NCBI GenBank assembly: GCA_029210725.1
Contig: JARGFM010000009.1
Location: forward strand, 39,253-103,252
Source of the DNA: Bacteroidales bacterium
Lineage (GTDB): Bacteria; Bacteroidota; Bacteroidia; Bacteroidales; GCA-2748055
Length of the DNA stretch: 64,000 bases
Direction: 5' to 3'
Position numbers and translations under genes: made by a program. Numbering within the stretch: the first letter of the stretch is position 1; every line of letters begins with the position of its first letter. This document shows, in pieces, positions 16,193 through 39,014 of the stretch. The notes below the pieces were generated by a model. The model was not told the origin of the DNA. It did no database searches and saw only the letters and a list, made by a program, of their open reading frames with translations.

Positions 16193-16284
16193 GATTACGT
16201 AAATTGATCGGGGCTAATATAGCAAAAATGGAGATTATATTCCTGAAAGAATCAATTGATTATATTTGCGCAAACCTTAAGATA

Positions 16285-17946
16285 ATGAACGTGAGAAACG
16301 GAACAGGGCTCCTCCTGTTGTGCTGTATTTACCTCTTTACTCCGCTTTCCTGTGATACCCCGTCCTACTGCTTTACAGAGGTATCCTCCGAAGCCGGTGT
16401 TGATTTTATGTACAACTTCGGCGACTATAGCTATGAAAACATCCTGGAGAGCAGTGGTTCGGGAGTGACCGTTTTTGACTATGACGGAGACGGCTGGATG
16501 GACCTGTATATGATGAACGGAACCTGGCTGGAAGGAATCTCGGATGAGGAGGGTAGAATCTTTGAAAACACCCCTAACCGGCTCTACCACAACCAGGGGG
16601 ACGGTACCTTTAAAGAGGTTTCGGAAAAAGCAGGTCTGGATAACCGTCAATGGAGCATGGCGGCAGGACCGGTCGATATAGACCAGGACGGGGACCAGGA
16701 CCTCTACCTGCTTAACTACGGTCCCAATGTATTCTACCGGAACAACGGGGACGGCACCTTCTCCGATATCACTGATAAACTTCGACTGGCCGGACCCGAC
16801 AGCCTGAACGGTTTTCCTAAATGGAGCGTGGGCGTTTCATTCTGGGACTATAACCTGGATGGCAGGCTGGATGCTTTTGTAGGCAATTTCCTGGCCTTTG
16901 ATCCCGGATATGTCTCCCCGGTCACACCGGAATTGATGCCACATCCTTCGGAATATAAGGGACAGGCCTCCCTGATGTACCGGCAGCAGGAAGACGGCAG
17001 CTTTCTGGAAGTTACCGAAGAGCTGGGACTTCTTTATCCCGAATCGATGTGCATGGGCCTGACCGTTTATGATTATGACCGGGATGGTGATCTGGATATG
17101 TTCCAGGGCAACGACCACCAGGCAAACTTTATGTTTCGCAACGACGGGGGCTCTTTCAGTGAAGTGGGAGTGGAGATTGGTGTGGCCGTAAACAGTCACG
17201 GACAAACAACGGGTTCCATGCACGGGGCCATCGGGGATGTGGACGGTGACGGACTCATCGATCTGCTGGTGCCCGACCTGCGCTACGGTGCCTTGTACCG
17301 CAATCTGGGGAACGGAACCTTCGGGGACATTACCGGGCAGAGTGGTATCGCAGGCGCCTTTGCAGGGAAGGGACAATGGGCTTCGGCTCTCTTTGACTAT
17401 GATAACGACGGCGATCTGGATCTCTTTTCTGCCAATGGCAACGGCGAAGAGCTGATCCTGCAGTATCCCCTTCTGATGGAGAATGACGGGGAGGGACGTT
17501 TTACCGATGTGGGTATGAAACTCAGCCCCTACTTCAAAGAGAAACGCTCCGGACGGGCTGCGGCCATCTGGGATTATGATAATGATGGTGATCTGGATAT
17601 TATTGTGTCGCATGTGGACCTGAAAGCCAATGCGGTTTTGCTCCGAAACGACTGCAATAACGCAAACCACTGGATCGGGCTTACCCTGGAGGGGGAACAT
17701 GGGGCCGCGGCGGCCATAGGTGCCACCTTGGTGGTCCACCGGGAAGAGAAGAAGTCCGTCCATATTAACCAGTGGACCACCACCTACCTCTCCAGCAGCG
17801 ATCCCAGGCTCCATATCGGCCTGGGCAAGAATCCAAAGATTGACAGCCTGGAAATCAACTGGTCCGATGGAACCCGGGAGATCTTCCCGGGACCCGCACC
17901 GGACAGTTATTACACCCTCCGGCAGGGATACGGGATTGTTGAATGA
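16285..17946 (+). CDS. CRTAC1-family protein (FG-GAP/VCBS repeats + ASPIC/UnbV C-terminal domain), lipoprotein
   Basis: I take the start at ATG 16285, because the track ORF begins at an upstream TTG. The lipobox is LFTPLSC. Repeated Ca-binding loops are DYDGDGWMDLY, DIDQDGDQDLY, DYDRDGDLDMF, DVDGDGLIDLL, DYDNDGDLDLF and DYDNDGDLDII. The C-terminus is NHWIGLTLEG...YLSSSDPRLHIGLG...INWSDG. Confidence 0.8.
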   Translation: MNVRNGTGLLLLCCIYLFTPLSCDTPSYCFTEVSSEAGVDFMYNFGDYSYENILESSGSGVTVFDYDGDGWMDLYMMNGTWLEGISDEEGRIFENTPNRLYHNQGDGTFKEVSEKAGLDNRQWSMAAGPVDIDQDGDQDLYLLNYGPNVFYRNNGDGTFSDITDKLRLAGPDSLNGFPKWSVGVSFWDYNLDGRLDAFVGNFLAFDPGYVSPVTPELMPHPSEYKGQASLMYRQQEDGSFLEVTEELGLLYPESMCMGLTVYDYDRDGDLDMFQGNDHQANFMFRNDGGSFSEVGVEIGVAVNSHGQTTGSMHGAIGDVDGDGLIDLLVPDLRYGALYRNLGNGTFGDITGQSGIAGAFAGKGQWASALFDYDNDGDLDLFSANGNGEELILQYPLLMENDGEGRFTDVGMKLSPYFKEKRSGRAAAIWDYDNDGDLDIIVSHVDLKANAVLLRNDCNNANHWIGLTLEGEHGAAAAIGATLVVHREEKKSVHINQWTTTYLSSSDPRLHIGLGKNPKIDSLEINWSDGTREIFPGPAPDSYYTLRQGYGIVE

Positions 17947-18053: not shown

Positions 18054-19715
18054 ATGAAACTTGCACCATGGACCCTCGTGTCAGCTTTCATCCTATTTAT
18101 GGCAGGATGCCAGTCGCCCGGCAAAAAGATCAGGGAGTCTGAACAAATCAGGGCCACTGTTCCCGAGGACAACGGGGATTTTATCCAGAAGATCTCTCCC
18201 GACAACGGAATCAATTTCAAGCACAGCATTGGCGACCATCATATGGACAACCTGGTGGAAACCGTCGGTGGGGGTGCCGTGTTCCTCGATTACGATAAAG
18301 ACGGTTTCCTGGATCTCTACATGAGCAATGGCTCTTATACCGAGGGGCTTAGCGAAGGAGAACATGATGGAAAAGTACATACCAACCAACTGTTCAGAAA
18401 TAAGGGAGACGGTACTTTCGAGGATGTAACCAAAAAAGCCGGTGTGGGAGATACGGGTTATGGCATGGGCATGACCGTGGGGGATATCAACAACGACGGT
18501 TATCCCGAAATCTATATCACCAACTTCGGTCCCAATGTGCTCTACCTGAACAATGGGAACGGAACCTTCACGGATATCAGTGAAAAAGCGGGTGTGGCTG
18601 GTAACGAGTGCAGTGTGGGTGCTGTTTGGCTGGACTATGATAACGACGGACTGCTGGACCTCTATGTGGGCAACTACATTAAATACGACCCGGATTACGG
18701 TTACTTTTACGAACCGGACGGATTTCCAGGTCCCATGGCCTATGACGGCCAGATCGATGCGCTGTATCATAATCTGGGCGGCAATACATTTGAAAATGTA
18801 ACCGAAGACATGGGGATCGCCAATCCGGATGGCCGGGCCATGGGGGTGGGTGCAGCCGATTTCGACGGAGATGGCTGGGTCGATATCTTCGTCGCAAATG
18901 ACCATATGGTCAATAATATCTACCATAACCTGGAAGGCAAAGGCTTTGTGGATCAAGGAACCCAGACAGGGATGGCCTTTAACCAGGCCGGGGAGGCCAC
19001 CATCTCCATGTCCGTGGACTTTGCCGACTATAATGGCGACGGCCTGATCGATGTCTTTATGTCGGACGATACCTATTGCTCTCTTTACCAGAATCAGGGC
19101 GGAGGTGTTTTCAGGGATATGGCCTACCCTTCGGGCATCTCCATGGCCGCAGCCCAGCATGTGGGCTGGTCTTCTTCCTTTATTGATTATGACAACGATG
19201 GAAGGGTGGATCTGTTTAAGGCCAATGGTGAGCTGAAGCACCTCTACGGGCAGGAGGATCAGATATTCAAAAATATGGACGGGGAAAAGTTTGTGGATAT
19301 CTCCGTGGAACTGGGAGCCTACTTCCAGGAAGAGAACGTGGGGCGGGGCGCCTGCTTTGGCGATTACGACAACGATGGGGATCTGGATGGCTACGTGGTC
19401 AACCTGGACAATTATGGCTCATTCCTGCGCAACAACCGTGGTAATGAGAACAACTGGATCACCTTTGAGCTGATTGGCACCCTGAGCAATCGGGATGCCA
19501 TTGGTGCCCTGGTGAAAATTTCAGCAGGCGACAGGGAACAGGTAGGGGTCAGAAGAAGTACCACCGGTTACCTTTCTCAGAACGATCACCGGTTGCATTT
19601 TGGACTGGGCGATGCCGAAACTGTTGATTTTGTAGAGGTCAAATGGCCCTCCGGTAAAGTACAACGGATTGAAAATCCGGAAATCAACCAGATCCTTAGC
19701 ATCACAGAAGAATGA
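18054..19715 (+). CDS. CRTAC1-family protein (FG-GAP/VCBS + ASPIC/UnbV), lipoprotein; tandem paralog of 16285..17946
   Basis: 553 aa with lipobox FMAGC and the same repeat series (DYDKDGFLDLY, DINNDGYPEIY, DYDNDGLLDLY, DFDGDGWVDIF, DYNGDGLIDVF, DYDNDGRVDLF, DYDNDGDLDGY). The C-terminus is NNWITFELIG...YLSQNDHRLHFGLG...VKWPSG. Confidence 0.8.
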   Translation: MKLAPWTLVSAFILFMAGCQSPGKKIRESEQIRATVPEDNGDFIQKISPDNGINFKHSIGDHHMDNLVETVGGGAVFLDYDKDGFLDLYMSNGSYTEGLSEGEHDGKVHTNQLFRNKGDGTFEDVTKKAGVGDTGYGMGMTVGDINNDGYPEIYITNFGPNVLYLNNGNGTFTDISEKAGVAGNECSVGAVWLDYDNDGLLDLYVGNYIKYDPDYGYFYEPDGFPGPMAYDGQIDALYHNLGGNTFENVTEDMGIANPDGRAMGVGAADFDGDGWVDIFVANDHMVNNIYHNLEGKGFVDQGTQTGMAFNQAGEATISMSVDFADYNGDGLIDVFMSDDTYCSLYQNQGGGVFRDMAYPSGISMAAAQHVGWSSSFIDYDNDGRVDLFKANGELKHLYGQEDQIFKNMDGEKFVDISVELGAYFQEENVGRGACFGDYDNDGDLDGYVVNLDNYGSFLRNNRGNENNWITFELIGTLSNRDAIGALVKISAGDREQVGVRRSTTGYLSQNDHRLHFGLGDAETVDFVEVKWPSGKVQRIENPEINQILSITEE

Positions 19716-21091
19716 ACAAACGAATGAACAGAAGCGGCAAATGGCTGAGAATTTTCAGGCTGGCTGTTTACGCCGGTCTGGCCGGTTTGGCCGGTTTCTC
19801 CTGCAGTGGCAATAAGTTTGAGGAAAAAGTTATCGCGGTGGAACTGGATGGCCTGCCCGGAACCCTGGAAGGGGCACAGCTGGTGCTTCTGGATCCCGCA
19901 GACAAGGAGAAGGACTCCAGGGCCCTGCTGAGTGATTTTGAAAGCAGCGCCTCGCCCTCCCTCTCCCACGAGGGACGCTACCTTTATTTCCAGGGACGGA
20001 AGAAAGAAGGCGATCCCTGGCAGATCTGGGTTTTGGACCTTAAAAAAGGAAAGGTAAGCCGCGTAAGCAATCTGCCTGAGAACTGCACTCATCCGGCCTC
20101 TCTGCCCGACGGCAGCGTGGTTTTCAGCCGGGAAGGCGAAGTCCGGGGTAAAAAGGTCCGGAACCTCTGGAAGTGTATGATGGATGGTTGCTGCCTGACA
20201 CAACTCACCCACCATCCGGCAGAAAACATCTATTCCAGTGTACTCCGGGAAGGCCGCATCCTGTACTCCAGCCGGCAGGTATACCCGGAAAACCGGGAAG
20301 CACAGCTCTTGATCATGCGCCCCGACGGAACCAAGTCAGAACTTTACAGCCCCGGCTGCTGCGGCTTGCTTCCCGTGAGCGGGGGACTGGAATCAGCGGA
20401 TGGCTATATTTATTTTATCAGTTCGGACGAACAGGTGAGCAGGGTGCTGCACCGCCGTCCGCTGCACAGCTTTGAGAACCTGTCCGGAGAGCTGGGTGGA
20501 AGTTTTGCCTCGGTCACCCCGATGGCTGACAGCTCCTGCCTGGTCAGCTATCTGCCGGTTGACGGCGACCGTTACGGCCTGTACCAGTTCGATCCCCGCC
20601 GTCCGGGAAAACCCGAAGCCCTTTTCCTTGGAGATAAACATCTGGTGGATCCGCTGGTAGTTTCCAGGGTGGAACCCCGTCCGAAGATCCTGCCCAGCCC
20701 GGTGGATCCTGCAAATCCCACCGCCATTTTGATGACCCAGAATATCAACCACAGCATGCTGCCGGTAAATGAAGGGATCACCGGAGACAGTCTGGCCGAC
20801 CGCATCCGTATTTCAACCCTGGAGGGTGAGCTGGCCGTGGTGGAGGCCAGGGACGATGGATCGGTCTACCTGAAACTGGATGCGGATACTCCCTTTTACA
20901 TGGAAACCCTGAACAACCAGGGAGAGATCGTGCGGGGACCCTCCGACTGGATATATCTGCGACCCAATGAGCGCAGGGCCTGTACAGGCTGCCATGTGGA
21001 CCCGGAACTGGCCCCCCGGAACTACCAGCCTCACGCGATCAAAGAAGACCCGGTGATACTGGCAAGCCAACAAAAAGAAGCAAGGCAATAA
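19712..21091 (+). CDS. TolB/PD40-like beta-propeller lipoprotein with C-terminal CXXCH heme-c motif (HzsA-related-like)
   Basis: 459 aa with a signal/lipobox (LAGFSCSG). PD40-like segments are SLSHEGRYLYFQG, ASLPDGSVVFS and IMRPDGTKSELY. The C-terminal DGSVYLKLDADTPFYMETLNNQGEIVRGPSDWIYLRPNERRACTGCH contains CTGCH at 20981..20995. The start overlaps the previous stop (ATGA, 19712..19715). Confidence 0.55.
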   Translation: MNKRMNRSGKWLRIFRLAVYAGLAGLAGFSCSGNKFEEKVIAVELDGLPGTLEGAQLVLLDPADKEKDSRALLSDFESSASPSLSHEGRYLYFQGRKKEGDPWQIWVLDLKKGKVSRVSNLPENCTHPASLPDGSVVFSREGEVRGKKVRNLWKCMMDGCCLTQLTHHPAENIYSSVLREGRILYSSRQVYPENREAQLLIMRPDGTKSELYSPGCCGLLPVSGGLESADGYIYFISSDEQVSRVLHRRPLHSFENLSGELGGSFASVTPMADSSCLVSYLPVDGDRYGLYQFDPRRPGKPEALFLGDKHLVDPLVVSRVEPRPKILPSPVDPANPTAILMTQNINHSMLPVNEGITGDSLADRIRISTLEGELAVVEARDDGSVYLKLDADTPFYMETLNNQGEIVRGPSDWIYLRPNERRACTGCHVDPELAPRNYQPHAIKEDPVILASQQKEARQ

Positions 21092-21106
21092 GAGAGGAGG
21101 CAGAAA

Positions 21107-23149
21107 ATGATACGAATAAAAGGCATATTGATTAGCGGAGCGATTGTACTGGTCCTTGCAGCGGTTCTTATTTTTGGAGGACGATGGGCCCGCGGACACG
21201 TGAATTATATAACGGCCACAGACGATCATCCCAGGACCTGCTGGAGCTGTCACATCTACACCCAGAAGGACAATTTCATCGCCAAACTGATAAACGAAAC
21301 CTACGTATCCCCCTATAAGCTGGACATCTCTCAGGATGGCAGCACCCTTTATGTGGTGGGACAGGAATCCAACGAAGTGATCGTGGTAGATACGGAAGAG
21401 GGAAAGGTCCTGGAAAAGATTCCCGTGGGACTGCGCCCCCACACAGTGACCCTGAGTCCCGACGGACAAAGTGCCTATGTAAGCAACCAGTGGGCCGATA
21501 ATATTTACCGCATCGATCTGGAAAGCCTGCGCGTGGTCGATACCCTGCTGAGCGGAGGCGGACCCGCGGGTTTGGTGATCAGTCCGGATGGAAAGCACCT
21601 CTGGTGCGTGAATTCCTATTCCAATGATATTTCGGTCTTTGACCTGGCTGATATGCAGGAGCGAAGGCGCCTGAAAGCCGGGAACAATCCTGTCTCGGCT
21701 GCCATGACGCCCGACGGCAGCGAGGTCTACGTGAGCAGCCGCCGCAGTGTGGATGTCCCCCATATGACCCATCCCCTGACCGAATTAACCGTGACCAGCA
21801 CCAAATACCAGCGGGTGAGCGACCGCAAAATGTTCCAGGATGCCTATATCATGGAAACGGTGGATGTAAGCCCGTCGGGCGACCTGGTATTGGCCACCCT
21901 GATCCGTCCGAAGAACCTTATTCCCACTATACAGATCGAGAGGGGCTGGATGATGACCCAGGGACTGGGCATTATCGAAAGGGAAAGCGGACGTATGGTC
22001 CAGCTGCTTCTCGACGAACCCAATGCCTTTTATGCCGATCCCTTCGGACTGGTAATCACTCCGGACGGGAAAAGAGCCTTTGTATCGCACGGGGCGGTAA
22101 ACAAGGTAACTGCCATCGACCTGGAAAAACTGCGCCAGGTACTTGCCGAAGTCCCGGACGAAGAACTGGAGGACTATGCCAATCACCTGGGATTAAGCAG
22201 CCGCTATGTCATCGGCCGCATTCCCACCGGGGCCAACCCGAAAGGGATGGTGCTGTCGCCCGACGGCCGCCTGCTTTACGTAGCCGAACGCCTGAACGAC
22301 CGGATTGCAGTGATCAATACGGAAAGTCTGGAAACGGTTGGAACCATCGGGCTGGAAGGGCCCCGGAGGCGAACCGTGGCCCGACACGGACGGCAGGTCC
22401 TGAACAATGCCAGTGGAACTTTCCAGAACCAGTATGCCTGCTATACCTGTCACCCTGATGCCCACGAGGACGGACTGGTCTACAATATGGCGGGGACGGA
22501 CATGGGACGAAACCTGGCTAATGTGCAAACCCTGAGGGATATAGGAGATATCCCTCCCTATAAGTGGAACGGAAAGAACCAGACTATCTACAAGCAGGAC
22601 GGCATGCGCTTCTCCACCATCCTGACCCGGAACGAGGCCTTTAGCTACAAAGAGCTGGATGCCCTGGTGGCCTATATCGTAACCGGAATTCCGAATCCGC
22701 CCAATCTCAGATATAATCCCACAGGGGAACTGACAGCCAAACAACAACGGGGCAAGGAGATCTTTTACCGGACCCACGATAACTTTGGCAACGAAATACC
22801 TGAAAAGAACCGCTGTCACACCTGTCACCCGCCTCCCTACTTCACCAATTTGGAGATGACCGATGTAGGGACCCTGGCCAACTCGGACGATCCCATGAAA
22901 TTTGACGTCCCCCAGCTAAACAATGTCTATGAATCGGCCCCCTACCTGCACGACGGGAAGGCCCCAACCCTGGAGGAGATCTGGACCAAATTCAATGACC
23001 ACGACGAGCACGGAGTGGCCAATGATATGTTTAAAGATCAGTTAAACGACCTGGTCGAGTACCTGAAGTCGCTCGGGGATGCGAAAAACTATATGGAGGA
23101 AGCCAAAATCTATGAAGCCTCTGTGTCAAAAAAAAATAAGCAAGAATGA
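21107..23149 (+). CDS. Membrane-anchored tri-heme protein: N-terminal CXXCH + YVTN-type beta-propeller + di-heme cytochrome c peroxidase (CCP/MauG)-like domain
   Basis: 680 aa with an N-terminal TM helix. The three CXXCH motifs are CWSCH (21239..21253), CYTCH (22439..22453) and CHTCH (22814..22828). YVTN-like blades are LYVVGQESNEVIVVD, LSPDGQSAYVSNQWADNIYRID, ISPDGKHLWCVNSYSNDISVFD and LSPDGRLLYVAERLNDRIAVIN. The CCP-like tail is DVPQLNNVYESAPYLHDGKAPTLEEIW. Confidence 0.7.
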   Translation: MIRIKGILISGAIVLVLAAVLIFGGRWARGHVNYITATDDHPRTCWSCHIYTQKDNFIAKLINETYVSPYKLDISQDGSTLYVVGQESNEVIVVDTEEGKVLEKIPVGLRPHTVTLSPDGQSAYVSNQWADNIYRIDLESLRVVDTLLSGGGPAGLVISPDGKHLWCVNSYSNDISVFDLADMQERRRLKAGNNPVSAAMTPDGSEVYVSSRRSVDVPHMTHPLTELTVTSTKYQRVSDRKMFQDAYIMETVDVSPSGDLVLATLIRPKNLIPTIQIERGWMMTQGLGIIERESGRMVQLLLDEPNAFYADPFGLVITPDGKRAFVSHGAVNKVTAIDLEKLRQVLAEVPDEELEDYANHLGLSSRYVIGRIPTGANPKGMVLSPDGRLLYVAERLNDRIAVINTESLETVGTIGLEGPRRRTVARHGRQVLNNASGTFQNQYACYTCHPDAHEDGLVYNMAGTDMGRNLANVQTLRDIGDIPPYKWNGKNQTIYKQDGMRFSTILTRNEAFSYKELDALVAYIVTGIPNPPNLRYNPTGELTAKQQRGKEIFYRTHDNFGNEIPEKNRCHTCHPPPYFTNLEMTDVGTLANSDDPMKFDVPQLNNVYESAPYLHDGKAPTLEEIWTKFNDHDEHGVANDMFKDQLNDLVEYLKSLGDAKNYMEEAKIYEASVSKKNKQE

Positions 23150-24219
23150 AAAAAGCACTGTTCATTGCCGGTCTATGTATGGTAGTCCCGGTCTTACTGA
23201 TGGCCGCGGAGCCGGAAGAAAAAAACAGTACCCTGCCGGAATTCGGCAACTGGGAAACCTTTACAACTAAAAATGGTCTGCCTGCCAACAAGGTCTATTG
23301 TGTGAGAGCCGACGGCGACCGGGTATGGATCGGTACCAGCCACGGACTGGTTCTTTATGAGAATGACGAATTTAAAACCTTTACCGAGGAGGACGGACTG
23401 GCCCACCCCGGTGTGCTTGCCATTGATGTGAGCGAGCTTACCGGCGATGTCTGGATCGGAACGCTGGGAGGATTGAACCGTTATTCGGGCGGGCAATTTG
23501 AGACTTTCACCCAGTTTAACAGCGGACTGGCCAATGATGTGATCTATTCGGTGATTTGCGATGGCAAGGATGTCTGGTGTGCCACCGGTGGCGGAGCAGG
23601 ACATTACGACACCTACCAGGAAGAATGGGCCATTTACACGGAACGTAATGCTCCCATGCACGAACCATGGACCTACAGTGTCTGTGCCGGGGATAACAAG
23701 GTCTGGATTGCTGCCTGGGGCGGTGGAGTGATCGAATGGCAAAAAGAAAACCAGACTTTCCGGGACTATGTGGACCCGGATGGCGAAATGGAAATCGACC
23801 TCTTCCCCGACGACGGGGTGGTTCACGATATTACCACCGCGGTATCCTTTGACAACGGCATCCTCTGGGTAGCCACCTACTTTGGAATGAGCCGTTACGA
23901 CGGGACCCACTGGAAAGGCTATTTTGATCATGACAGCGGACTGGCCAGCAACTTTATCAACTTTCTCAGAGCAGTCGATGATGTGGTCTACCTTTGTACG
24001 GACAAAGGACTCAGCAGCTTTAACAGTGAAGAGTGGGTCAGCTACCAGAAAACAGATCAGGGAGGAAGACGGCTCTACTGGAAGGATGGCAACGCCTCCA
24101 CCAAAGAGGATCCCACCGGGATCGCCCACAGTTTTACCATCGGGATGGATATCCAGGGGGATGACACCATCTGGGTGGCCACCTCCTACGGTCTGAGCCG
24201 CGGTCACAGAATCAATTAA
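23146..24219 (+). CDS. Secreted two-component-regulator-propeller (Reg_prop) repeat protein without kinase or DNA-binding domains
   Basis: 357 aa with a signal peptide. Repeats are NGLPANKVYCVRADGDRVWIGTSHGLVLY, DGLAHPGVLAID...DVWIGTLGGLNRY, SGLANDVIYSVICDGKDVWCATGGG and SGLASNFINFL. The start overlaps the previous stop (ATGA, 23146..23149). Confidence 0.7.
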   Translation: MKKALFIAGLCMVVPVLLMAAEPEEKNSTLPEFGNWETFTTKNGLPANKVYCVRADGDRVWIGTSHGLVLYENDEFKTFTEEDGLAHPGVLAIDVSELTGDVWIGTLGGLNRYSGGQFETFTQFNSGLANDVIYSVICDGKDVWCATGGGAGHYDTYQEEWAIYTERNAPMHEPWTYSVCAGDNKVWIAAWGGGVIEWQKENQTFRDYVDPDGEMEIDLFPDDGVVHDITTAVSFDNGILWVATYFGMSRYDGTHWKGYFDHDSGLASNFINFLRAVDDVVYLCTDKGLSSFNSEEWVSYQKTDQGGRRLYWKDGNASTKEDPTGIAHSFTIGMDIQGDDTIWVATSYGLSRGHRIN

Positions 24220-24221
24220 GC

Positions 24222-25553
24222 ATGAACGGAATCTCAATGGATCGAATCATGAAACATAGCAAACATATAGCAAGGACAATTCTCCTGGGCCTAACAGGGC
24301 TGTTAGTACTCTCTTCGCCCCCGGATCTGAATGCGCAGAGGTACCAGGAGAAGGATGATAACTATGGGAAGACACCCAGTGAAATGCTTCCTTACGGAAA
24401 CTACCAGGATGCCTATATCTACCATTTTCATGAGCCTCAACCCTTCCTGGGAGCCGGACGTGAAAAGAAGGAACCCACCGGGCTTTCAGAAGTACGGATC
24501 GGTGTGCTGGCTCCGCTGTCCGGCGATGTATTGTCCCCGCAGGGAAACCAGTTGCTTCAGGGAGCCATGCTGGCAGCCGAAGAGGCCAGTAAGCGAGGGG
24601 GCTATAAGGGACTTCCCTTCAAGGTCATGCCGCACAACGATGTGGGACTCTGGGGGGCAGCAGCCAACGAGGTGGTTAAAATGCATGACGAAGGCGCCTG
24701 GGCTGTTCTGGGCACCATCGATGATGTGAACTCCCACGTGGCCATCCGGGTCGCCCTGAAACTCGAGATACCGGTCGTCAATTGCGGGGACCCCGATCCC
24801 ACCTTCACCGAAACAGCCATCCCCTGGGTTATCCGGGTCATCGGCGATGACCGCCAGAGCAGTTACGCCCTGGTGGATTATATCCACCGCAAGATGGAAC
24901 ATAAGCGGGTAGCCGTGTTACGTGCCAACAACCGCTACGGGAGGGTGGGCATCATGGAATTCCGGGACGCCGCCCTGAGAATTGGCTATCCCCTGGTTCT
25001 GGAGGTCCGTTACGATGAGGGCGAAACCACCTTTGACGCACAGATCGAACGGATGAAGAACTCGAATCCCGATGCCATCTTACTCTGGGGGAATGCTAAT
25101 TCCATGGCGATGATCGTGAACCAGATCAGGGAGATGGGTATGGAACAACCCATCTATGCCTCGGACCGCTCAGTCAATCCGGATTTCCTGGAAATTGCCG
25201 GGGAAAATGCCGAGGGCATCATCACCACCTGCCAGTACAATCCCAAAGCGGACTCCCCTCAATTGAAAGCCTTTCAGGAAAATTATAAAAAACGCTTTGG
25301 AATGGAGCCGGATGTTTTTGCAGCACATGCTTATGACGGGATGAACCTGATTATTAAATCCATCGAGAAGGTAGGACTCAACAAGGCACTGATCCGGGAT
25401 AAACTTACCGATCTGAAAACCTTCCAGGGTTACGAAGGAATTACAGGTCCGATCATCCTGGACGGTTCATGGAATGATATCGGGTCTATCTTTCTGGCAG
25501 AGATCAAAGAAGGGGACTACCATTTCTCCCCGGCATCCTGGGAATGGAAATAG
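24222..25553 (+). CDS. Type I periplasmic solute-binding protein (LivK/Peripla_BP_6 family), exported
   Basis: 443 aa, with an alternative start at ATG 24249. The signal ends LNAQ. VRIGVLAPLSGDVLSPQGNQLLQGAMLAAEEASKRGGYKGLPFKV...AVLGTIDD is the typical branched-chain amino acid/amide-binding fold signature. It starts 2 nt after the previous stop. Confidence 0.75.
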   Translation: MNGISMDRIMKHSKHIARTILLGLTGLLVLSSPPDLNAQRYQEKDDNYGKTPSEMLPYGNYQDAYIYHFHEPQPFLGAGREKKEPTGLSEVRIGVLAPLSGDVLSPQGNQLLQGAMLAAEEASKRGGYKGLPFKVMPHNDVGLWGAAANEVVKMHDEGAWAVLGTIDDVNSHVAIRVALKLEIPVVNCGDPDPTFTETAIPWVIRVIGDDRQSSYALVDYIHRKMEHKRVAVLRANNRYGRVGIMEFRDAALRIGYPLVLEVRYDEGETTFDAQIERMKNSNPDAILLWGNANSMAMIVNQIREMGMEQPIYASDRSVNPDFLEIAGENAEGIITTCQYNPKADSPQLKAFQENYKKRFGMEPDVFAAHAYDGMNLIIKSIEKVGLNKALIRDKLTDLKTFQGYEGITGPIILDGSWNDIGSIFLAEIKEGDYHFSPASWEWK

Positions 25554-25589: not shown

Positions 25590-26456
25590 ATGCAAACAGA
25601 TACGTGTAGTATTGAAACCACCCTCAAAAGTGATGATCCCGACCTGGTCAGCAGAAGCGCCAGACCGGAGGGCACTATTGTTAATGTCAACGGCATCCGG
25701 ATCGGTGGCAAGGAGATTGTCATCATGGCCGGCCCCTGTGCCGTTGAGAGCGAGGTGCAATTAAGTGAAACAGCAAAAAGTGTCCGAAGCCTGGGAGCTT
25801 CCATCCTGAGAGGCGGGGCTTTTAAGCCGCGGACCTCCCCTTACAGTTTTCAGGGCCTGGGCATAGAGGGACTGGAGATGCTGGAAAGAGCCCGGGGTTT
25901 GACCGGTTTATCTGTGGTCTCTGAGGTCATGGATACCCGGCAGGTAGAGACCGTGGCCAGGTATGCCGATATGCTGCAGATCGGTTCCAGGAACATGCAG
26001 AACTTCCCCCTGCTGAAAGAGGCAGGGAAAACCTCCAAACCCATCCTTTTGAAGCGGGGGATGATGGCCACCATCGATGAATACCTGTATGCGGCCGAAT
26101 ACCTGCTTTCACAGGGAAATACCCAGGTGGTACTGTGCGAAAGAGGCATCCGGACCTTTGAATCATCCACCCGCTACACCCTGGATCTTAATGCCATTCC
26201 GGTACTGAAACAACGCACTCATTTACCCGTGATTGTGGATCCAAGTCATGGCACAGGGATACGATCCCTGGTGCCTACCATGGCCAGGGCCTCTATTGCC
26301 GCAGGGGCGGACGGATTATTAATGGAGGTACACTACCGGCCCGAAGAAGCCCTTTGTGATGGTTCACAATCCCTTTATCCCGAGGAGTTCGGGAGGATGA
26401 TGGGAGATCTCCGGAAAGTGGCAGAGGCCATAGGCCGCTCCATTCACGTGCTCTAA
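25590..26456 (+). CDS. 3-deoxy-7-phosphoheptulonate (DAHP) synthase, type I-beta
   Basis: 288 aa. [45 protein letters not shown] and VIVDPSH are DAHPS I-beta hallmarks. KPRTSP, as opposed to the KDO8PS variant, supports the DAHPS call. Confidence 0.85.
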
Positions 26457-26468
26457 ACCGGCCAGGTT

Positions 26469-27557
26469 TTGACCCGGCTTTCACGATACCTGTTTCTGGC
26501 GATCGTGGCCCTTCCTTTTGACGGGGCCGCTCAGGATCAGCAGCGAGTTCCCGGGGAGCATCTGACCCCTTCAGGCAAGATAGGCATCGGACTGCTCCTC
26601 CCCGATCCCAGCTATTGGAAAGTAGCTGAGGCAGCAGAACTGGCCATTCTGGAAGCCAATGATGCAGGCGGCTATAAGCAGCACGATTTTGAACTGATCA
26701 TCCGCACTGCAGAAGGGTTCTGGGGCGCAGGTTCCAAAGAATCGGTCAGTTTGGTTTATGAGGACCGTGTCCGGGCTATCATCGGGTCACTGGACGGCCG
26801 GAACGGACATCTGGCCGAACAGGTGGCCACCAAGTCGCACCTCACTTACATGGAGACCTTCGCCACCGAGCCCACCCTTTCTCAGGCCTTTGTTCCCTGG
26901 TTCATGCGGGTGGTGCCCAATGATGACCAGCAGGCGGCTGTCATCCTGGACCAGATACAAAAAGAAGGCGGAGGAAAAACCGGCATCCTCTCGGTAGAGA
27001 GCTACGACACCCGTTATGCCATTAAAAGTCTTACCAAAGCGGTAACTCAGAAAACCGGAATGGCACCAGTGCTAATCCCCCTGGATACCAGCCATACCAG
27101 GCAGCAGAGAGTTTTCGGTCAGATCATAAGCAATGAACTGGATCACTTAATTATTCCCTACTACGCAGCTAACATGAGTGATCTGATTCAAAGCCTTGGA
27201 ACGCAGAAACCAGGCCTGAAAATCTATGGCACCCTCCACTTTAAGATGGGAATGGAGAGCCGGGAATCGGGCTCTGAAGCTTTCGAAGGAATTTACCTGA
27301 TTGGTCTGCATGCTGCCAGGGAAAGCAAGTTTCCGGACTGCCGCTCTGCCTATTTGTACGATGCTGTAAACCTGGTTATCAATGCAATTCAGCATGTCGG
27401 AACAGACAGGACATCCATCACAAATTACCTGAGCGAATCGACCTTTTACAAAGGGCTAAGCGGCACTATCTCCTTTGACGAACTGGGAAACAGGAAAAGT
27501 GTTCCTTCCCTGCTGCGTATTGAAAACGGGAGCCTGCATGTATTAAATCACCCCTGA
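26469..27557 (+). CDS. Type I periplasmic solute-binding protein (LivK/Peripla_BP_6 family), exported; TTG start
   Basis: 362 aa. The TTG at 26469 is followed directly by a signal peptide (LFLAIVALPFDGAAQ), and there is no in-frame ATG for about 120 codons. IGIGLLLPD...AELAILEANDAGGYKQHDFELI...AIIGSLDG follows the same fold pattern as 24222..25553. Confidence 0.7.
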   Translation: MTRLSRYLFLAIVALPFDGAAQDQQRVPGEHLTPSGKIGIGLLLPDPSYWKVAEAAELAILEANDAGGYKQHDFELIIRTAEGFWGAGSKESVSLVYEDRVRAIIGSLDGRNGHLAEQVATKSHLTYMETFATEPTLSQAFVPWFMRVVPNDDQQAAVILDQIQKEGGGKTGILSVESYDTRYAIKSLTKAVTQKTGMAPVLIPLDTSHTRQQRVFGQIISNELDHLIIPYYAANMSDLIQSLGTQKPGLKIYGTLHFKMGMESRESGSEAFEGIYLIGLHAARESKFPDCRSAYLYDAVNLVINAIQHVGTDRTSITNYLSESTFYKGLSGTISFDELGNRKSVPSLLRIENGSLHVLNHP

Positions 27558-27562
27558 AACAC

Positions 27563-29059
27563 TTAGCTGGAAGGGGTATTAAAGGAGAGGGAGTTTACAT
27601 AAATATCCTGGAAATCCTTCTCAGACTCCAGGTTCACATGGCTGCTAAGGCCCAGAATCTTTTCAGTCAGCTCCATCGGGGAAAAGAGAAACATCTTGGC
27701 TCCCATCAAAGCGGAGTTTCCCAGTTTTCGAAAACGATCCGGAGGAAAATCCATCATTCCTGTCCGAAGCATCTTCTCCAGATTAATATAGGTACCAAAA
27801 GCCCCGGATATGTAAATACGGGAGATCTCCTCTGCACTGATTCCAAGCTTTCGCAGCAGAATAGTCAGACCGGCCGCGATGGCTGCCTTGGCCAGCAGGA
27901 ACTCCTGGATATCCCTGGCTGTAAGGCTGACCCCCTCCGTAAGAGCTATCTCCCCATCACCTGAGAGGATCTCCCCAAAAACTCCCAGCATACCCCTGTC
28001 CAGGAGCGTGGCCACCGCATCGATCAGGCCGCTTCCGCAGATTCCTGAAGCCGGAACATTCCCGATCACCCGGCAACTTAATCCCTCCCCGCTGTCCGTG
28101 ACCGACGAAATAGCCCCGGTAGTGGCCAGCATCCCCCTGGATATCCTGGCACCTTCAAAAGCAGGTCCTGCTGCGGTGGAGGCACATAACAAGCGCTCTC
28201 TGTTCCCAACGACAATCTCCCCGTTGGTTCCCAGGTCCACCAGTACCGAATACTCCTTTCTGCGCCACAGGTCCGTGGCATGTATTCCCGCCAGGATATC
28301 ACTTCCCACAAAGCTCCCGATGGAAGGGAAGAAGCTGATCCGGTCACAGTTTAAATCCCAGTCCAGCCCGGAGGCGCTGAATTCCCTGATTCCCAGGTCG
28401 GGCGAATCAAAGGGATAATAAGCCAGCGGCCTGATATCGGCGCCGGAAAACAGATGCTGCATCACCGTGTTCCCCACCATCACGATCCTCTCGATCCTGG
28501 TCTTTCTTCCTCCGGTCAGCTTCAGTAACATGGCTCCGATCTCCTCCCGGATCAAGCGGCTTAGCCGGGGCCCGTTCCCGGCAAGTGCCGATTCAAGCCT
28601 GGTGATCAGATCGCTTCCCCATCTGCGCTGGGGGTTCAGGGCTGTTTCAACAGCAAGCACCTTTGAGCTAGAGAGGTCCACCAGCTGCGCCACCAGGGTG
28701 GTGGTTCCCAGATCCACTGCCACTCCATAACCGGAAAGGGGCACAAACGAGAAGGAACTTTCATCGGCCTGGATCATCGTTTCGAACTGTCCCACTTCCA
28801 GCACCAGATCCTCCTCAGCCCTGCTCATGCAAGCCAGTCTCCACTCCGGGGAAAGTCCCAGTTCTTTAAGTTTTCTCTGATGCTCCGGAATGGTTTGGAT
28901 TAGGCCCCCGGCTACCTTCACTTTACACTTGCCACATCTTCCCTTCCCCCCGCAGGGAAATTCAACACCGAATTCGTGCAGAGCATCGATTAAGGAAGCT
29001 CCCCTGGTGACTGTCAGTTCTTTGCCAGGAGGAAGTAGTGTGATCCGGACGGTTTCCAA
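27563..29059 (-). CDS. Corrinoid reductive activase (RACo/AcsV-like: N-terminal 2Fe-2S ferredoxin + ASKHA ATPase, DUF4445)
   Basis: 498 aa. The N-terminus FPCGGKGRCGKCKVKV...RLACMS is a plant-type 2Fe-2S motif. It is followed by ASKHA-like phosphate loops (YGVAVDLGTTT, VLVDLGTNGE) and ICGSGLID. Confidence 0.8.
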   Translation of the reverse strand: METVRITLLPPGKELTVTRGASLIDALHEFGVEFPCGGKGRCGKCKVKVAGGLIQTIPEHQRKLKELGLSPEWRLACMSRAEEDLVLEVGQFETMIQADESSFSFVPLSGYGVAVDLGTTTLVAQLVDLSSSKVLAVETALNPQRRWGSDLITRLESALAGNGPRLSRLIREEIGAMLLKLTGGRKTRIERIVMVGNTVMQHLFSGADIRPLAYYPFDSPDLGIREFSASGLDWDLNCDRISFFPSIGSFVGSDILAGIHATDLWRRKEYSVLVDLGTNGEIVVGNRERLLCASTAAGPAFEGARISRGMLATTGAISSVTDSGEGLSCRVIGNVPASGICGSGLIDAVATLLDRGMLGVFGEILSGDGEIALTEGVSLTARDIQEFLLAKAAIAAGLTILLRKLGISAEEISRIYISGAFGTYINLEKMLRTGMMDFPPDRFRKLGNSALMGAKMFLFSPMELTEKILGLSSHVNLESEKDFQDIYVNSLSFNTPSS

Positions 29060-29062
29060 AAG

Positions 29063-29731
29063 CTAAACGGCAAGTTCTTTTAAGTATTCCACGGCACCGC
29101 GGGGATCGGGGGAATAGAAATCAGCTCCGATCTGGATTCTGAACTCGTCTGTCAGAGGAGCTCCGCCCACCAGGATCCTGGTACCGGGATGAGTCCCTTT
29201 GATCTTCCTTACAATCTCCTCCATATTGGCCATGGTAGTGGTAAGCAGAGCGGACAGGCCGACCACCGCCCCCGGATTCTCCGAAACTGCCTGTGTAAAG
29301 GTATCTTCATTCACATCCACGCCCAGGTCAATGATGCTCCATCCCCCGCCTTCCACCATCATAGCCACCAGATTCTTTCCAATATCGTGCAGGTCACCCT
29401 TCACGGTACCGATGATAAAGGTTCCTTTGGTTTTCACATCACCACTCTGAAAGAAGGGCTTCAGGTGCTTCATGGCAGCCCCCATGGCTTTGGCGGACAT
29501 TAACATCTGGGGGACAAATATCTTGTTCTCTGAAAACTTTTGTCCGATGCGGTCCATGGCCGGGACCAGCGCCACGGTAAGAATATCTGAGGGAGATACT
29601 CCACTGGCCAGAGCCTCGAAGGCAATTTCATCCGCTCCGTCCAGTCCCTTCATCTGCGGGGGATAGGGGGAGTTTTTGTCCACTTTTCCAGCTTCCACTG
29701 CTTCACCAAGTTTTACTAATAAGGAATCCAT
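29063..29731 (-). CDS. Cobalamin-binding corrinoid protein (methyltransferase cognate, MtbC/MttC-like)
   Basis: 222 aa with an N-terminal B12-binding cap helix bundle. The Rossmann domain carries the DxHxxG motif (VKGDLHDIGKNLV) and GLSALLTTT. Its stop lies 3 nt before the activase start. Confidence 0.85.
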   Translation of the reverse strand: MDSLLVKLGEAVEAGKVDKNSPYPPQMKGLDGADEIAFEALASGVSPSDILTVALVPAMDRIGQKFSENKIFVPQMLMSAKAMGAAMKHLKPFFQSGDVKTKGTFIIGTVKGDLHDIGKNLVAMMVEGGGWSIIDLGVDVNEDTFTQAVSENPGAVVGLSALLTTTMANMEEIVRKIKGTHPGTRILVGGAPLTDEFRIQIGADFYSPDPRGAVEYLKELAV

Positions 29732-29863
29732 AAATAGTGAGGTTTTAGAATGTAATGTCAGGCTTTGCTGAAGGTAAAAATAGTGATTATGAAACAGTAA
29801 TTTGATATTACCCGTATAGTTTGTTCAGAATAGTTTTATCTTCAGAATTCAAAGTCCTCCAAC
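29732..29863. promoter_or_regulatory. Divergent control region between the corrinoid-protein/activase operon (-) and the fhs operon (+), with short direct repeats
   Basis: 132 nt between divergent starts. AAATAGTGA occurs at 29732..29740 and 29778..29786, and TTCAGAAT at 29824..29831 and 29841..29848. I recognised no cobalamin-riboswitch core. Confidence 0.4.
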
Positions 29864-31531
29864 ATGAATGATCTTGACATAGCCAAAAAAGTAAAGCTAC
29901 TGCATATCTCAGCCATCGCAGGCAAGCTGGGTATTCACGAAGATCTGATAGAGATGTTCGGTAAGTATAAAGCCAAGCTGCCCCTGCATCTCATTGATGA
30001 AAAGCGGGTTAAACAGAGCAAGCTGATCCTGGTATCCGCCACCTCTCCCACTCCTGCGGGAGAGGGCAAAACTACGGTATCCATAGGCCTCTCAGAGGGG
30101 CTTAACCGCCTGGGGAAGAAAAGCACGGTGGTTCTCAGGGAGCCTTCCCTGGGGCCCATCTTCGGGATCAAGGGAGGGGCCACCGGCGGAGGATACTCCC
30201 AGGTACTGCCCATGGAGGATATCAATCTTCATTTCACGGGCGACTTTGCCGCTATCGAAAAGGCGCATAACCTGCTCTCCGCGGTGATCGATAACAATAT
30301 TCAAAGCAGGACCAACGGACTGGGACTCGATCCGAGAACCATCTCCTGGAAAAGGGTGATTGATATGAATGACCGGTCGTTGCGCCGGATCATCGTGGGG
30401 CTTGGAGGCACCACCTCAGGCGTTCCGAGGGAAACCGGCTTCGATATTACAGCAGCCTCGGAGATCATGGCCATCCTTTGCCTGGCGGCCGATATTCACG
30501 ATCTGAAAATCAGGCTGGGCAATATTTTTGTAGGATATACGCATCAGAAAGAGCCCATATATGCCCGGGATCTGAAAGCGGAAGGGGCCATGGCTGCCCT
30601 GCTGAAAGATGCCATTATGCCCAATCTGGTACAAACCATTGAAGGAAATCCGGCCATTATTCACGGAGGGCCCTTTGCCAATATCGCCCAGGGGACCAAC
30701 TCAGTGATAGCCACCAAGATGGGAATGACCCTTTCGGAGTATACCGTCACGGAAGCGGGCTTTGGCTTTGACCTGGGAGCTGAGAAATTCTTCGATATCA
30801 AATGTCAGAGTGCGGGCCTTTCACCGAAGGTGGTGGTCCTGACCACCACCATCCGGGCCCTGAAATACCATGGCGGTGCCGAATTGATGAAACTGAAGGA
30901 TCCGGATCCTGAAGCCCTGAGAAAGGGACTGCCCAACCTGGAAAAACACCTGGAAAACATCAGGCAGTTTAAGGTGACTCCCGTGATAGCCCTGAACCGC
31001 TTTACCTCCGATACCAAAGAGGAGATCGACATGGTGCTTGAAAAAGCCAGATCACTGGGCGTCGACTGCGCCGTGGCAGATCTTTGGGCCAAAGGAGGCG
31101 AAGGGGCCCTGGATCTGGCAGAAAAGGTGATGGCCCTTGCCGAGTCCGACCCTCCGGTGTTTGAGCCCCTGTATGACTGGAACTGGGATGTAAAAAGAAA
31201 GATAGAAACTCTGGCCACCAGGATATATGGTGCCGAACATGTGGATTACTCGCCCCAGGCCAGGCAGGATTTGAAAAAGATTTCCGAACTGGGTCTGGAA
31301 CAACTGCCGGTCTGTATTGCCAAGACTCAAAAATCCCTCTCCGACAATCCCGCCCTGCTGGGCCGGCCCAAAGACTTTATCATCACTGTACGCGAGATTG
31401 AGATTGCATCGGGAGCAGGATTCCTGATCCCCATTACCGGAAACATCATGAGGATGCCTGGCCTGCCGGCCCATCCGGCATCAGAAAATATCAGCATCGA
31501 TAATGACGGGAATATTACAGGACTCATGTAA
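29864..31531 (+). CDS. fhs: Formate--tetrahydrofolate ligase
   Basis: 555 aa with end-to-end resemblance to Fhs. Motifs include DIAKKVKLLHISAIA, TPTPAGEGKTT, GIKGGATGGGYSQV and PVCIAKTQKSLSDNP. Confidence 0.95.
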   Translation: MNDLDIAKKVKLLHISAIAGKLGIHEDLIEMFGKYKAKLPLHLIDEKRVKQSKLILVSATSPTPAGEGKTTVSIGLSEGLNRLGKKSTVVLREPSLGPIFGIKGGATGGGYSQVLPMEDINLHFTGDFAAIEKAHNLLSAVIDNNIQSRTNGLGLDPRTISWKRVIDMNDRSLRRIIVGLGGTTSGVPRETGFDITAASEIMAILCLAADIHDLKIRLGNIFVGYTHQKEPIYARDLKAEGAMAALLKDAIMPNLVQTIEGNPAIIHGGPFANIAQGTNSVIATKMGMTLSEYTVTEAGFGFDLGAEKFFDIKCQSAGLSPKVVVLTTTIRALKYHGGAELMKLKDPDPEALRKGLPNLEKHLENIRQFKVTPVIALNRFTSDTKEEIDMVLEKARSLGVDCAVADLWAKGGEGALDLAEKVMALAESDPPVFEPLYDWNWDVKRKIETLATRIYGAEHVDYSPQARQDLKKISELGLEQLPVCIAKTQKSLSDNPALLGRPKDFIITVREIEIASGAGFLIPITGNIMRMPGLPAHPASENISIDNDGNITGLM

Positions 31532-31586
31532 GCCGGACAGGTCAGAAATATTATGTTCATAAGTGTATCACTTTCCATTCGTTCAT

Positions 31587-32441
31587 ATGCAAACCATACT
31601 CAGAGGCAAGACAAAAGAGGTGATCATCGACACCGAAGGACCGGTAGTCGTCATTGGCGAAAGCATCAATCCCACCCGCCGCAAGAAACTGGCGGAGACC
31701 CTGCGAAACCATGATTTTGAATTCGTCCTGCAACTCGCAAAATCGCAGATAGAAAGCGGCGCAGAGGTCCTGGATGTAAATGTGGGCTTTCCCGGGGTGG
31801 ACGATGAAAGCATGCTGCCAGAAACTGTGAGGGCCATTCAGGAGAGCTTTGACATCCCCCTCTGCCTGGACTCCCCCAATCCCAAAGCCATCGAGGCAGC
31901 ATTAAAGGCGGCCGAAGGCAAAGCTTTGATTAACTCGGTGAATGGAGAAGAAAAGTCCCTGCAGGCCATCCTTCCCCAGGCCAGAGAGTACGGAGCAGCA
32001 GTGATCGGGCTGGTGATGGATGAGGAAGGGATCACACAGGATCCGGAACTCAGATTTCAGATTGCAGAAAAGATTCTTAACCGGGCCGTCCGGACAGGGA
32101 TTCCAGCGGAGGATGTGATCATTGATCCCCTGGCCATGGCGGTCAGCGCCGATCACGATGCATGTATGGTCACCCTGCAAACCATCAAACTGGTTCACGA
32201 CCGACTTGGTCTCAATATCACACAGGGAGCCAGCAACATCTCTTTCGGACTGCCTAACAGGGAAGAACTGAACAAGGCTCATTTGGCCATTTCCATCTGG
32301 AACGGTCTCAGTTGTCCCATCGCCAACCCTGACAAAATCACGACCTTTGTCAGGGCCCTGGACCTGGTCAGGGCCAGGGATGAATTCGCTATGCGGTTTA
32401 CAGAATTCTTCTTTAGTCAGGAGGCTTTGAAAAACAGTTGA
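31587..32441 (+). CDS. Methyltetrahydrofolate:corrinoid methyltransferase (pterin-binding TIM barrel, AcsE/MetH-pterin-domain-like)
   Basis: I take the start at ATG 31587, because the track ORF starts at GTG 31563. VVVIGESINPTRRKKL, GAEVLDVNVG, LCLDSPNP, LINSVNGE and NISFGLPNR are typical of the Pterin_bind domain. Confidence 0.8.
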   Translation: MQTILRGKTKEVIIDTEGPVVVIGESINPTRRKKLAETLRNHDFEFVLQLAKSQIESGAEVLDVNVGFPGVDDESMLPETVRAIQESFDIPLCLDSPNPKAIEAALKAAEGKALINSVNGEEKSLQAILPQAREYGAAVIGLVMDEEGITQDPELRFQIAEKILNRAVRTGIPAEDVIIDPLAMAVSADHDACMVTLQTIKLVHDRLGLNITQGASNISFGLPNREELNKAHLAISIWNGLSCPIANPDKITTFVRALDLVRARDEFAMRFTEFFFSQEALKNS

Positions 32442-32465
32442 TCAAACAACTTAAACTCAGAAGCA

Positions 32466-38959: not shown

Positions 38960-39014
38960 GCTGAGAAGCTGTTGGTACTTATAAAAACTGAAAGGTTCCG
39001 CATACCCTTTGTTC

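Follow-up and report, generated by a model that had tools for sequence, protein, structure and literature searches.

The relation of two adjacent genes to hydrazine synthase (HZS) was analysed in a 64,000-nucleotide stretch of DNA (the window) from contig JARGFM010000009.1, which belongs to an uncultured Bacteroidales metagenome-assembled genome (MAG). Gene 1 encodes a short HzsA-like subunit, and gene 2 encodes a fused HzsB-like and HzsC-like subunit with an extra N-terminal anchor and heme motif. Sequence comparison indicated that both proteins are true, distant homologs of HzsA, HzsB and HzsC, and that the pair is no hydrazine synthase. From its gene order, the shared heme-alphaI motif and the phylum, the pair very probably belongs to the clade III family of HZS homologs published for Bacteroidota. 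The novelty of the pair is therefore low, as it is a further member of a published family whose arrangement was described by Hägglund et al. 2025 (Genome Biol Evol, PMC12758564), with a related pair in PMC10732223. The gene block conserved around the pair extends beyond that description.

Homology to the three hydrazine synthase subunits

Gene 1 encodes a lipoprotein in which a six-bladed PD40 propeller is joined to an HZS_alpha middle domain bearing one c-type heme site. A lipoprotein-type signal, AGFSC, is present at its N-terminus, and Cys31 is invariant in 36 homologs. The Pfam model PF18582 (HZS_alpha) matched residues 374-428 with 47.2 bits against a gathering score of 26.6, and the top NCBIfam model was hydrazine_alpha with 62.8 bits. 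When all PDB sequences were searched, the best match was HzsA (5c2v_A, E 1.3e-15), over three stretches that include the CXXCH motif. The AlphaFold model of gene 1 (predicted local distance difference test score, pLDDT, 81.9) also had 5c2v_A as its best fold match, with a query template-modelling score (TMq) of 0.72 versus 0.48 for TolB and about 18% identity in the fold alignment. The TolB model TIGR02800 gave 23.3 bits, below its equivalog cut-off of 343. The short alpha-like relatives of gene 1 are 21-29% identical to Kuenenia HzsA.

The propeller of gene 2 showed HzsB homology end to end. Its residues 67-405 aligned with residues 13-349 of 5c2v_B (E 1.9e-46 by phmmer against all PDB sequences; 162 bits to HzsB), and the Foldseek comparison again placed 5c2v_B first, with a target template-modelling score (TMt) of 0.89, a root-mean-square deviation of 2.4 Å and 28% identity. 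The insertion loop of blade 6 is retained relative to HzsB beta245-260 (PKNLIPTIQIERGWMM against PKNWLPVCEAENGEVF). This loop was modelled with pLDDT below 50 in the gene 2 monomer, and such disorder is expected because a loop of this kind packs between subunits. Glu278 of the loop, a possible counterpart of betaGlu253, aligned with the second Glu of the HzsB motif CEAENG in both phmmer and MAFFT, and it is conserved among clade-III-type sequences; the loop Glu is stated as not conserved in homologs in PMC12758564, which contrasts with this alignment.

The C-terminal domain of gene 2 is an HzsC-like di-heme domain related to CCP and MauG. The HzsC match among all PDB sequences had an E-value of 3e-17, and profile searches strengthened the matches to HzsA, HzsB and HzsC alike. 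By profile, the di-heme domain scored 80.9 bits with HzsC versus 30 with the MbnH-like 'Di-heme enzyme' 6e1c, 25 with CCP and 14 with MauG. PF03150 scored 26.1 bits on the whole protein and 29.3 on the isolated domain, marginally above its gathering score of 25.6, and HzsC was the far better match. The NCBIfam models hydrazine_BC (215.1 bits), hydrazine_beta (189) and hydrazine_gamma (79) stood ahead of or among all other propeller and peroxidase models. With di-heme CCP and MauG/MbnH (PF03150) the domain shares a pair of CXXCH motifs spaced by about 125 residues, an inter-heme Trp (Trp487) and a PY(x)HDG motif past the second heme; SAPYLHDGKAPTLEE is also present. Unlike CCP and MauG, it is preceded by a 350-residue HzsB-like propeller lying between the N-terminal heme and the di-heme unit, and it has an obligate alpha-like partner gene. 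A mapping of the distal-pocket Gln/Glu of CCP and MauG onto Q497 and E510 was tried and no claim is made from it, because HMMER aligns CCP and MauG over the second-heme half only.

All three CXXCH motifs of gene 2 are invariant in 36 homologs of 68-87% identity, and their positions are identical in all intact copies from 42 related loci, where the sole CXXCH of gene 1 is likewise kept. Judged by this conservation, the heme motifs of the pair are conserved gene content and no chance motif match. His31 and His41 of the N-terminal segment of gene 2 are also invariant. The segment with its helix and CWSCH is absent from anammox HzsB and HzsBC, and it gave no match to any family, NapC/NrfH-like or other, even at E <= 10 with Pfam included.

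The pair thus has the same three-module inventory as HzsABC of Kuenenia stuttgartiensis (PDB 5C2V; Dietl et al. 2015, via PMC12607021). Both have a PD40 propeller with a heme middle domain, a YVTN propeller with the blade-6 loop, a CCP-like di-heme domain, four hemes in total and exported proteins; the beta-gamma fusion is as in Scalindua. Unlike HzsABC, the pair has the alpha gene first and adds the N-terminal membrane anchor and heme.

The original prediction had placed two open reading frames (ORFs) on the forward strand 15 nucleotides apart, and these were recovered as described; the gap holds a Shine-Dalgarno-like stretch, GAGAGGAGG. The PD40 match and the lipoprotein signal bear out its exported propeller, and the membrane anchor, CWSCH, YVTN propeller, CYTCH, CHTCH and di-heme pattern that it listed for gene 2 were all found. 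It had also let gene 1 end in the CTGCH stretch; the stretch is present, but it is not literally the protein end as 31 residues follow. The checks it had proposed favoured it: the HZS_alpha score of gene 1 is above gathering, the best solved structural matches are HzsA, HzsB and HzsC with no generic TolB or lactonase propeller, and wherever the contig continues, in 41 of 41 loci, the gene 1 homolog has a gene 2 homolog downstream of it. Its reservation that the resemblance lay at the level of architecture only did not hold, as sequence and fold homology were found too: HzsA, HzsB and HzsC are the best matches by sequence, and HzsA and HzsB by fold.

Residues lost relative to hydrazine synthase and membership of clade III

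The pair is judged to be no hydrazine synthase because required residues are missing and the NCBIfam scores lie far under the equivalog cut-offs, being 62.8 versus 800 for the alpha model NF052339 and 215.1 versus 1250 for the beta-gamma fusion model NF052342. The residues were checked in an alignment with an anammox hzsB-hzsC-hzsA locus (L043), on which the gamma numbering was also verified. This locus was reached via one fragment; a third homolog search, with stitched Kuenenia HzsA fragments, gave only HzsA fragments and no full-length protein. The hzsA of L043 (8001..10435) is frameshifted in the assembly into products of 444 and 324 amino acids, and its N- and C-terminal parts were used separately. 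This split is probably the reason why the protein search gave only fragments.

In HzsA, Tyr591 is the ligand of heme alphaI, and His587 of the CXXCH binds zinc together with Cys303 (PMC12607021). Gene 1 reads CTGCH-VDPE where the anammox sequence reads CSGCH-DGSY, VDPE taking the place of the xGSY of HzsA, and its short relatives read CxGCH-xD/N-PE. A two-residue gap falls at alphaSer590/Tyr591 in gene 1 and in all short homologs, which matches Fig. S7A of PMC12758564. The alphaCys303 region is gapped as well, and Cys303 is absent. Gene 1 stops 31 residues past its only CXXCH, and the C-terminal cytochrome c domain with the bis-His heme alphaII is absent. From these residues the alpha heme of gene 1 appears to be canonically His-ligated.

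In HzsC, gammaCys165 forms a third heme link and gammaAsp168 is a proton donor (PMC12607021). In gene 2 and its relatives, the segment LDRVCGRD, which holds both, coincides with a gap of five residues. Trp487 (PPYKWNG) replaces gammaHis144 (PPFRHEG) and is invariant in 36 homologs; the gammaHis144 position is occupied by the catalytic Trp in CCP and MauG (PMC12758564). The same residue losses were reported for the non-anammox homolog clades, which were judged unable to make hydrazine (PMC12758564). General library scans and the ORF survey detected no hao, hdh, nir, nor or nxr in the 64-kb window and no other sign of N-oxide or anammox metabolism; the window is a chromosome segment of a saccharolytic Bacteroidales member, carrying gyrB and mutS2 besides glycoside hydrolases, a sulfatase and a corrinoid/folate C1 cluster.

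Homologs of alpha that are encoded next to fused beta-gamma homologs have been sorted, together with these, into clades I-IV (PMC12758564). Clade III, represented by Lutibacter citreus and Maribacter luteus, both Bacteroidota, has the alpha-like gene upstream of the beta-gamma-like gene. Its alpha-like protein keeps the heme alphaI motif and is without heme alphaII and the last ~100 residues, and its beta-gamma-like protein carries exactly one heme motif beyond the two canonical ones. The pair is preceded by an FG-GAP/CRTAC1 gene and followed by two genes for ABC-type substrate-binding proteins (PMC12758564). All four of these gene-order and domain features were found in the window: alpha before beta-gamma, a short alpha, one extra heme, and the FG-GAP/CRTAC1 gene with two binding proteins. 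The motif WIYLRPNERRxCxGCH is nearly identical in gene 1 and in the Lutibacter citreus and Maribacter luteus proteins, and the printed Fig. S7A sequence ...WIYLRPNERRGCVGCHENK..GLVPDN corresponds to ...WIYLRPNERRACTGCHVDPELAPRN in gene 1. The representatives in the paper are Flavobacteriaceae isolates, and in this the window copy from the Bacteroidales MAG differs. The main text of PMC12758564 makes no mention of the Reg_prop propeller, DAHP synthase or Rid-family genes described below.

A comparable pair is found in Phycisphaerae UBA1845 MAGs (Dalcin Martins et al. 2023, PMC10732223), with an hzsA-like gene directly upstream of a fused hzsBC-like gene, as here. Those genes scored 89-163 bits to the Kuenenia subunits, comparable with the score of gene 2 to HzsB, and the authors suggest that HZS-like enzymes form a wider family acting on other substrates (PMC10732223). 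Besides this pair, the Phycisphaerae MAGs contain hao, nxr and further genes associated with anammox, and the paper considers whether they are novel anammox bacteria, whereas the window has none of these genes. The original prediction was right that gene 1 has one CXXCH, that nothing else in the window indicates anammox metabolism, and that the alpha plus beta-gamma set exists outside anammox bacteria; the arrangement it described had already been published as clade III.

Distribution of the pair and its conserved gene block

The HMMER scan with gene 1 covered one representative per 50%-identity cluster of ~15 billion public proteins. It gave 2289 alpha-like cluster representatives at E <= 1e-3, of which 729 reached E <= 1e-10, and among the best 150 representatives listed most have 440-490 amino acids, which is the short form. 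In three members of the short alpha-like family (P0303, P0319 and P0342) GFTGWD replaces the GCxGCH of the others, making them heme-less variants.

A locus scan of one genome per species, with patterns specific to a Bacteroidota clade, revealed a gene 1 homolog in 42 Bacteroidota MAG loci; as the patterns were clade-specific, these loci are uninformative on distribution outside Bacteroidota. The apparent exceptions to pairing in a simple ORF count were frameshifted assemblies. The alpha and beta-gamma genes lie within ~25 nucleotides of each other or overlap, and the pairing holds down to ~30-35% alpha identity. The mean identity to the window copy is 72% for the beta-gamma-like and 54% for the alpha-like protein, so the latter evolves faster. 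The two identities correlate across loci (r = 0.89), which is no evidence of interaction because it mostly reflects shared phylogeny. In one clade-II-type locus (L048, GC 59%) the beta-gamma-like protein bears no more than two hemes.

In the window the pair is part of a tight same-strand block with gaps of -4, 15, -4, 2, 36 and 12 nucleotides from the second lipoprotein gene onwards (Table 1). The ORF of lipoprotein 1 was called from a TTG at 16204, and its true start is likely Met28 at 16285. The stop of lipoprotein 2 overlaps the start of gene 1 by 4 nucleotides, and the start of the Reg_prop gene overlaps the stop of gene 2 by 4 nucleotides. Binding protein 2 is the last gene of the block, the next gene being convergent.

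Table 1. Features of the gene pair and of the surrounding block, with positions in the window
Feature	Position	Strand	Remarks
CRTAC1-like FG-GAP/ASPIC-UnbV lipoprotein 1	16204..17946	+	FG-GAP_3 161 bits, UnbV_ASPIC 60 bits; lipobox PLSC
CRTAC1-like FG-GAP/ASPIC-UnbV lipoprotein 2	18054..19715	+	FG-GAP_3 164 bits, UnbV_ASPIC 81.5 bits; lipobox MAGC
Gene 1, short HzsA-like subunit	19712..21091	+	459 amino acids; NCBI MDF1574860.1, 'hypothetical protein'
Gene 1 heme-binding motif CTGCH, residues 424-428	20981..20995	+	counterpart of HzsA heme alphaI
Gene 2, fused HzsB-like and HzsC-like subunit with extra N-terminal anchor and heme motif	21107..23149	+	680 amino acids
Gene 2 N-terminal hydrophobic helix (residues 6-24) and membrane-proximal CWSCH (residues 45-49)	21122..21253	+	
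Gene 2 seven-bladed YVTN propeller	21299..22336	+	HzsB homology end to end
Gene 2 blade-6 insertion loop RPKNLIPTIQIERGWMMT, residues 267-284	21905..21958	+	
Gene 2 HzsC-like, CCP/MauG-related di-heme domain	22358..23086	+	
Gene 2 CYTCH, residues 445-449	22439-22453	+	
Gene 2 Trp487	22565-22567	+	
Gene 2 CHTCH, residues 570-574	22814-22828	+	
Gene 2 PYLHDG	22940-22957	+	
Secreted stand-alone Reg_prop beta-propeller	23146..24219	+	Pfam Reg_prop; PDB 4a2l, E 2e-29
Secreted LIVBP-type periplasmic binding protein 1	24222..25553	+	Peripla_BP_6 168.6 bits; PDB 3td9, E 1.9e-30; conserved synteny
Cytoplasmic type I-beta DAHP synthase, between the two binding-protein genes	25590..26456	+	NF006421 446 bits versus cut-off 335
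Secreted LIVBP-type periplasmic binding protein 2	26469..27557	+	ANF_receptor, Peripla_BP_6; conserved synteny

In the related loci a homolog of lipoprotein 1 is conserved upstream of the pair, and homologs of lipoprotein 2, 60-92% identical, lie directly upstream of the alpha-like gene; the best PDB match of lipoprotein 2 was human CRTAC1 (9etn, E 2e-22). In Bacteroides hybrid two-component systems the periplasmic sensor domain is similar to the Reg_prop protein, which is itself without a kinase domain. The PDB matches of the two binding proteins were generic Leu/Ile/Val-binding proteins, which gave no clue to a ligand, and no transporter genes adjoin the binding-protein genes.

The downstream set of Reg_prop protein, binding protein, DAHP synthase and final binding protein is kept in all sufficiently long loci, the extended module being present in L029, L031, L034-L037, L039, L044, L046, L047, L049, L050 and the P0417 locus. 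Divergent subclades add a Rid-family protein of 190 amino acids without a signal peptide, of which the window has no copy; it is 82-86% identical among loci whose alpha-like protein is only ~35% identical to the window copy. The P0417 locus has the order alpha, FG-GAP, beta-gamma, followed by Reg_prop, Rid, DAHP synthase and two binding proteins. As the same accessory set follows the pair in this differently ordered locus, a functional link is suggested over inherited synteny. The Reg_prop, DAHP synthase and Rid-family members of the module are possibly new relative to the main text of the 2025 paper.

Three further groups of genes were observed in the window. A chorismatase of FkbO/Hyg5 type (9317..10516, reverse strand; TIGR04444 162 bits, below the cut-off of 325) lies ~9 kb upstream of the block, and each of its two YjgF-like halves shows weak similarity (E ~1e-6) to the Rid-family protein in the clusters of other subclades. 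A corrinoid/folate C1 group adjoins the block at 27563..33920, comprising a RACo-type corrinoid activator with a 2Fe-2S domain, a B12-binding corrinoid protein, a formate-tetrahydrofolate ligase, a pterin-binding methyltransferase and an MTHFR-like protein, and it suggests methyl-transfer (demethylation-type) metabolism in this Bacteroidales MAG. A DUF4276 protein and an AAA_21 (AbiEii-like) ATPase, encoded at 37083..39025 on the reverse strand with a 4-nucleotide overlap, may be a defence or toxin-antitoxin-type pair.

Possible function and rival explanations

The pair most likely represents a membrane-tethered periplasmic tetraheme oxidoreductase. The lipid-anchored alpha-like and helix-anchored beta-gamma-like subunits would form an HZS-like four-heme complex at the periplasmic face of the inner membrane, and the HzsB-type blade-6 loop together with the alpha-like heme suggests that the inter-subunit channel and the second heme site are retained. 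Extra N-terminal hemes number eight in clade I and one in clade III (PMC12758564), which suggests that the beta-gamma unit needs an electron supply. Because the single heme adjoins the membrane helix, the quinol pool or a membrane partner would be the likely donor. Tri-heme membrane-anchored quinol peroxidases, namely E. coli YhjA and Aggregatibacter QPO, have an N-terminal helix and a third heme ahead of the di-heme unit, and the N-terminal helix and third heme of gene 2 resemble this arrangement by architectural analogy.

In the proposed electron path, the N-terminal heme beside the membrane helix would be the point of entry, from the menaquinol pool or a membrane partner, and electrons would pass to the gammaII-like heme and then via the peroxidase-type Trp487 to the gammaI-like heme. 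Such inter-heme transfer is pointed to by the occurrence of Trp487 at the CCP/MauG position. The gammaI-like heme may reduce a small oxidant, either H2O2 or an N-oxide such as NO or NH2OH, and the alpha-like heme would be a second, canonically ligated site. A reductive reaction at the gammaI-like heme is favoured because of the reasoning from the electron-supply heme and Trp487. The chances of the complex-plus-electron-path model are regarded as evenly balanced, and the whole favoured explanation, clade III identity with the putative complex and the electron path, as leaning towards correct. The assignment as a reductive small-molecule enzyme, acting on peroxide or an N-oxide, is put forward only tentatively.

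Several observations weigh against this explanation. The N-terminal heme segment of gene 2 resembles no known quinol-oxidising family in the family search at E <= 10. The di-heme domain was poorly modelled (pLDDT below 50), so it gives no pocket geometry. The alpha heme may be dispensable because some alpha-like relatives are without any CXXCH. A role as a simple peroxidase or N-oxide reductase leaves the conserved binding proteins, Rid-family protein and DAHP synthase unexplained. As the carriers include both cultured Flavobacteriaceae and this Bacteroidales MAG, no one respiratory lifestyle hints at a substrate. The literature search found no experiment on any family member; for functional work on bacterial HZS-like, CRTAC1-family or UnbV proteins it returned only PMC12758564 and PMC10732223.

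The main rival, considered unlikely on balance, is a MauG/MbnH-like role in which peroxide or O2 would drive the oxidation of a protein-bound or small aromatic or amino substrate, with long-range hole hopping via Trp487. The substrate could be a residue of the CRTAC1-like or alpha-like protein, or a ligand that the two binding proteins or the sensor-like propeller supply. The Trp at the gammaHis144 position, as in CCP and MauG, is in agreement with this role, as are the weak matches to MbnH-family and MauG-like NCBIfam models and to the MbnH-like 6e1c. The role also fits the CRTAC1-like genetic link across clades I-III and the link with binding proteins, Rid-family protein and DAHP synthase in loci of two gene orders, accessory proteins for which it would account better than the reductive reading does. 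However, the domain is far nearer to HzsC (80.9 bits) than to MauG (14), a permanent membrane-proximal heme suits a steady electron flux over one-off maturation, and no candidate cofactor-bearing substrate protein was identified.

A wider and quite improbable reading is that the pair may be the catalytic core of a larger module made up of the CRTAC1-like lipoproteins, the propeller resembling a hybrid two-component sensor, the Rid-family protein, the two LIVBP-type binding proteins and a dedicated DAHP synthase. This module would carry out an undescribed heme-dependent conversion, a pre-anammox chemistry ancestral to hydrazine synthesis, for which an amino-acid-derived or shikimate-derived compound, or a small N species with an amine, would be candidate substrates.

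It is more doubtful still that the block is a periplasmic heme-based sensing or electron-relay module and no enzyme, in which the two binding proteins, the Reg_prop protein and the hemes would report redox or ligand status. The likeness of the Reg_prop protein to the hybrid two-component sensor domain, the binding proteins without neighbouring transporter genes and the existence of heme-less alpha-like variants are consistent with such a module, but no kinase, receiver or DNA-binding output domain was found in the block by Pfam and NCBIfam. The strong conservation of the beta-gamma-like protein relative to the alpha-like protein, with its invariant HzsC-like heme domain, makes the pair look enzymatic.

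A cryptic functional hydrazine synthase, with anammox-type chemistry in Bacteroidota, is highly improbable and was rejected on the residue checks, the NCBIfam cut-offs and the window content. The three subunit homologs and their adjacency are genuine, but the scores (62.8 versus 800 and 215 versus 1250), the deleted alphaSer590/Tyr591, the absent alphaCys303 and heme alphaII domain, the deleted gammaCys165/Asp168 segment, the change of gammaHis144 to Trp and the lack of hao, hdh, nir, nor and nxr in the window all oppose it, and PMC12758564 concludes the same for all non-anammox clades. Equally implausible is an ordinary TolB-like propeller beside a lactonase propeller-CCP fusion with incidental adjacency and HZS resemblance, which was rejected because the weak TolB and lactonase matches stand behind the HZS subunits in every sequence and fold comparison and the pairing is strict over 41 loci down to ~30-35% alpha identity.

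To our knowledge, hydrazine synthase was long held to be without relatives. Its evolution can be approached only through the non-anammox homologs, which form a large family of uncharacterised periplasmic heme enzymes. To this family the window adds a well-assembled example of the full operon from an uncultured Bacteroidales MAG, and its residues bear out the published conclusion that such homologs are no hydrazine synthases. In metagenome annotation, matches to HZS_alpha or hzs hidden Markov models in Bacteroidota must therefore not be counted as anammox potential. The extended module together with the cultured carriers Lutibacter citreus and Maribacter luteus makes the function of the family experimentally approachable.

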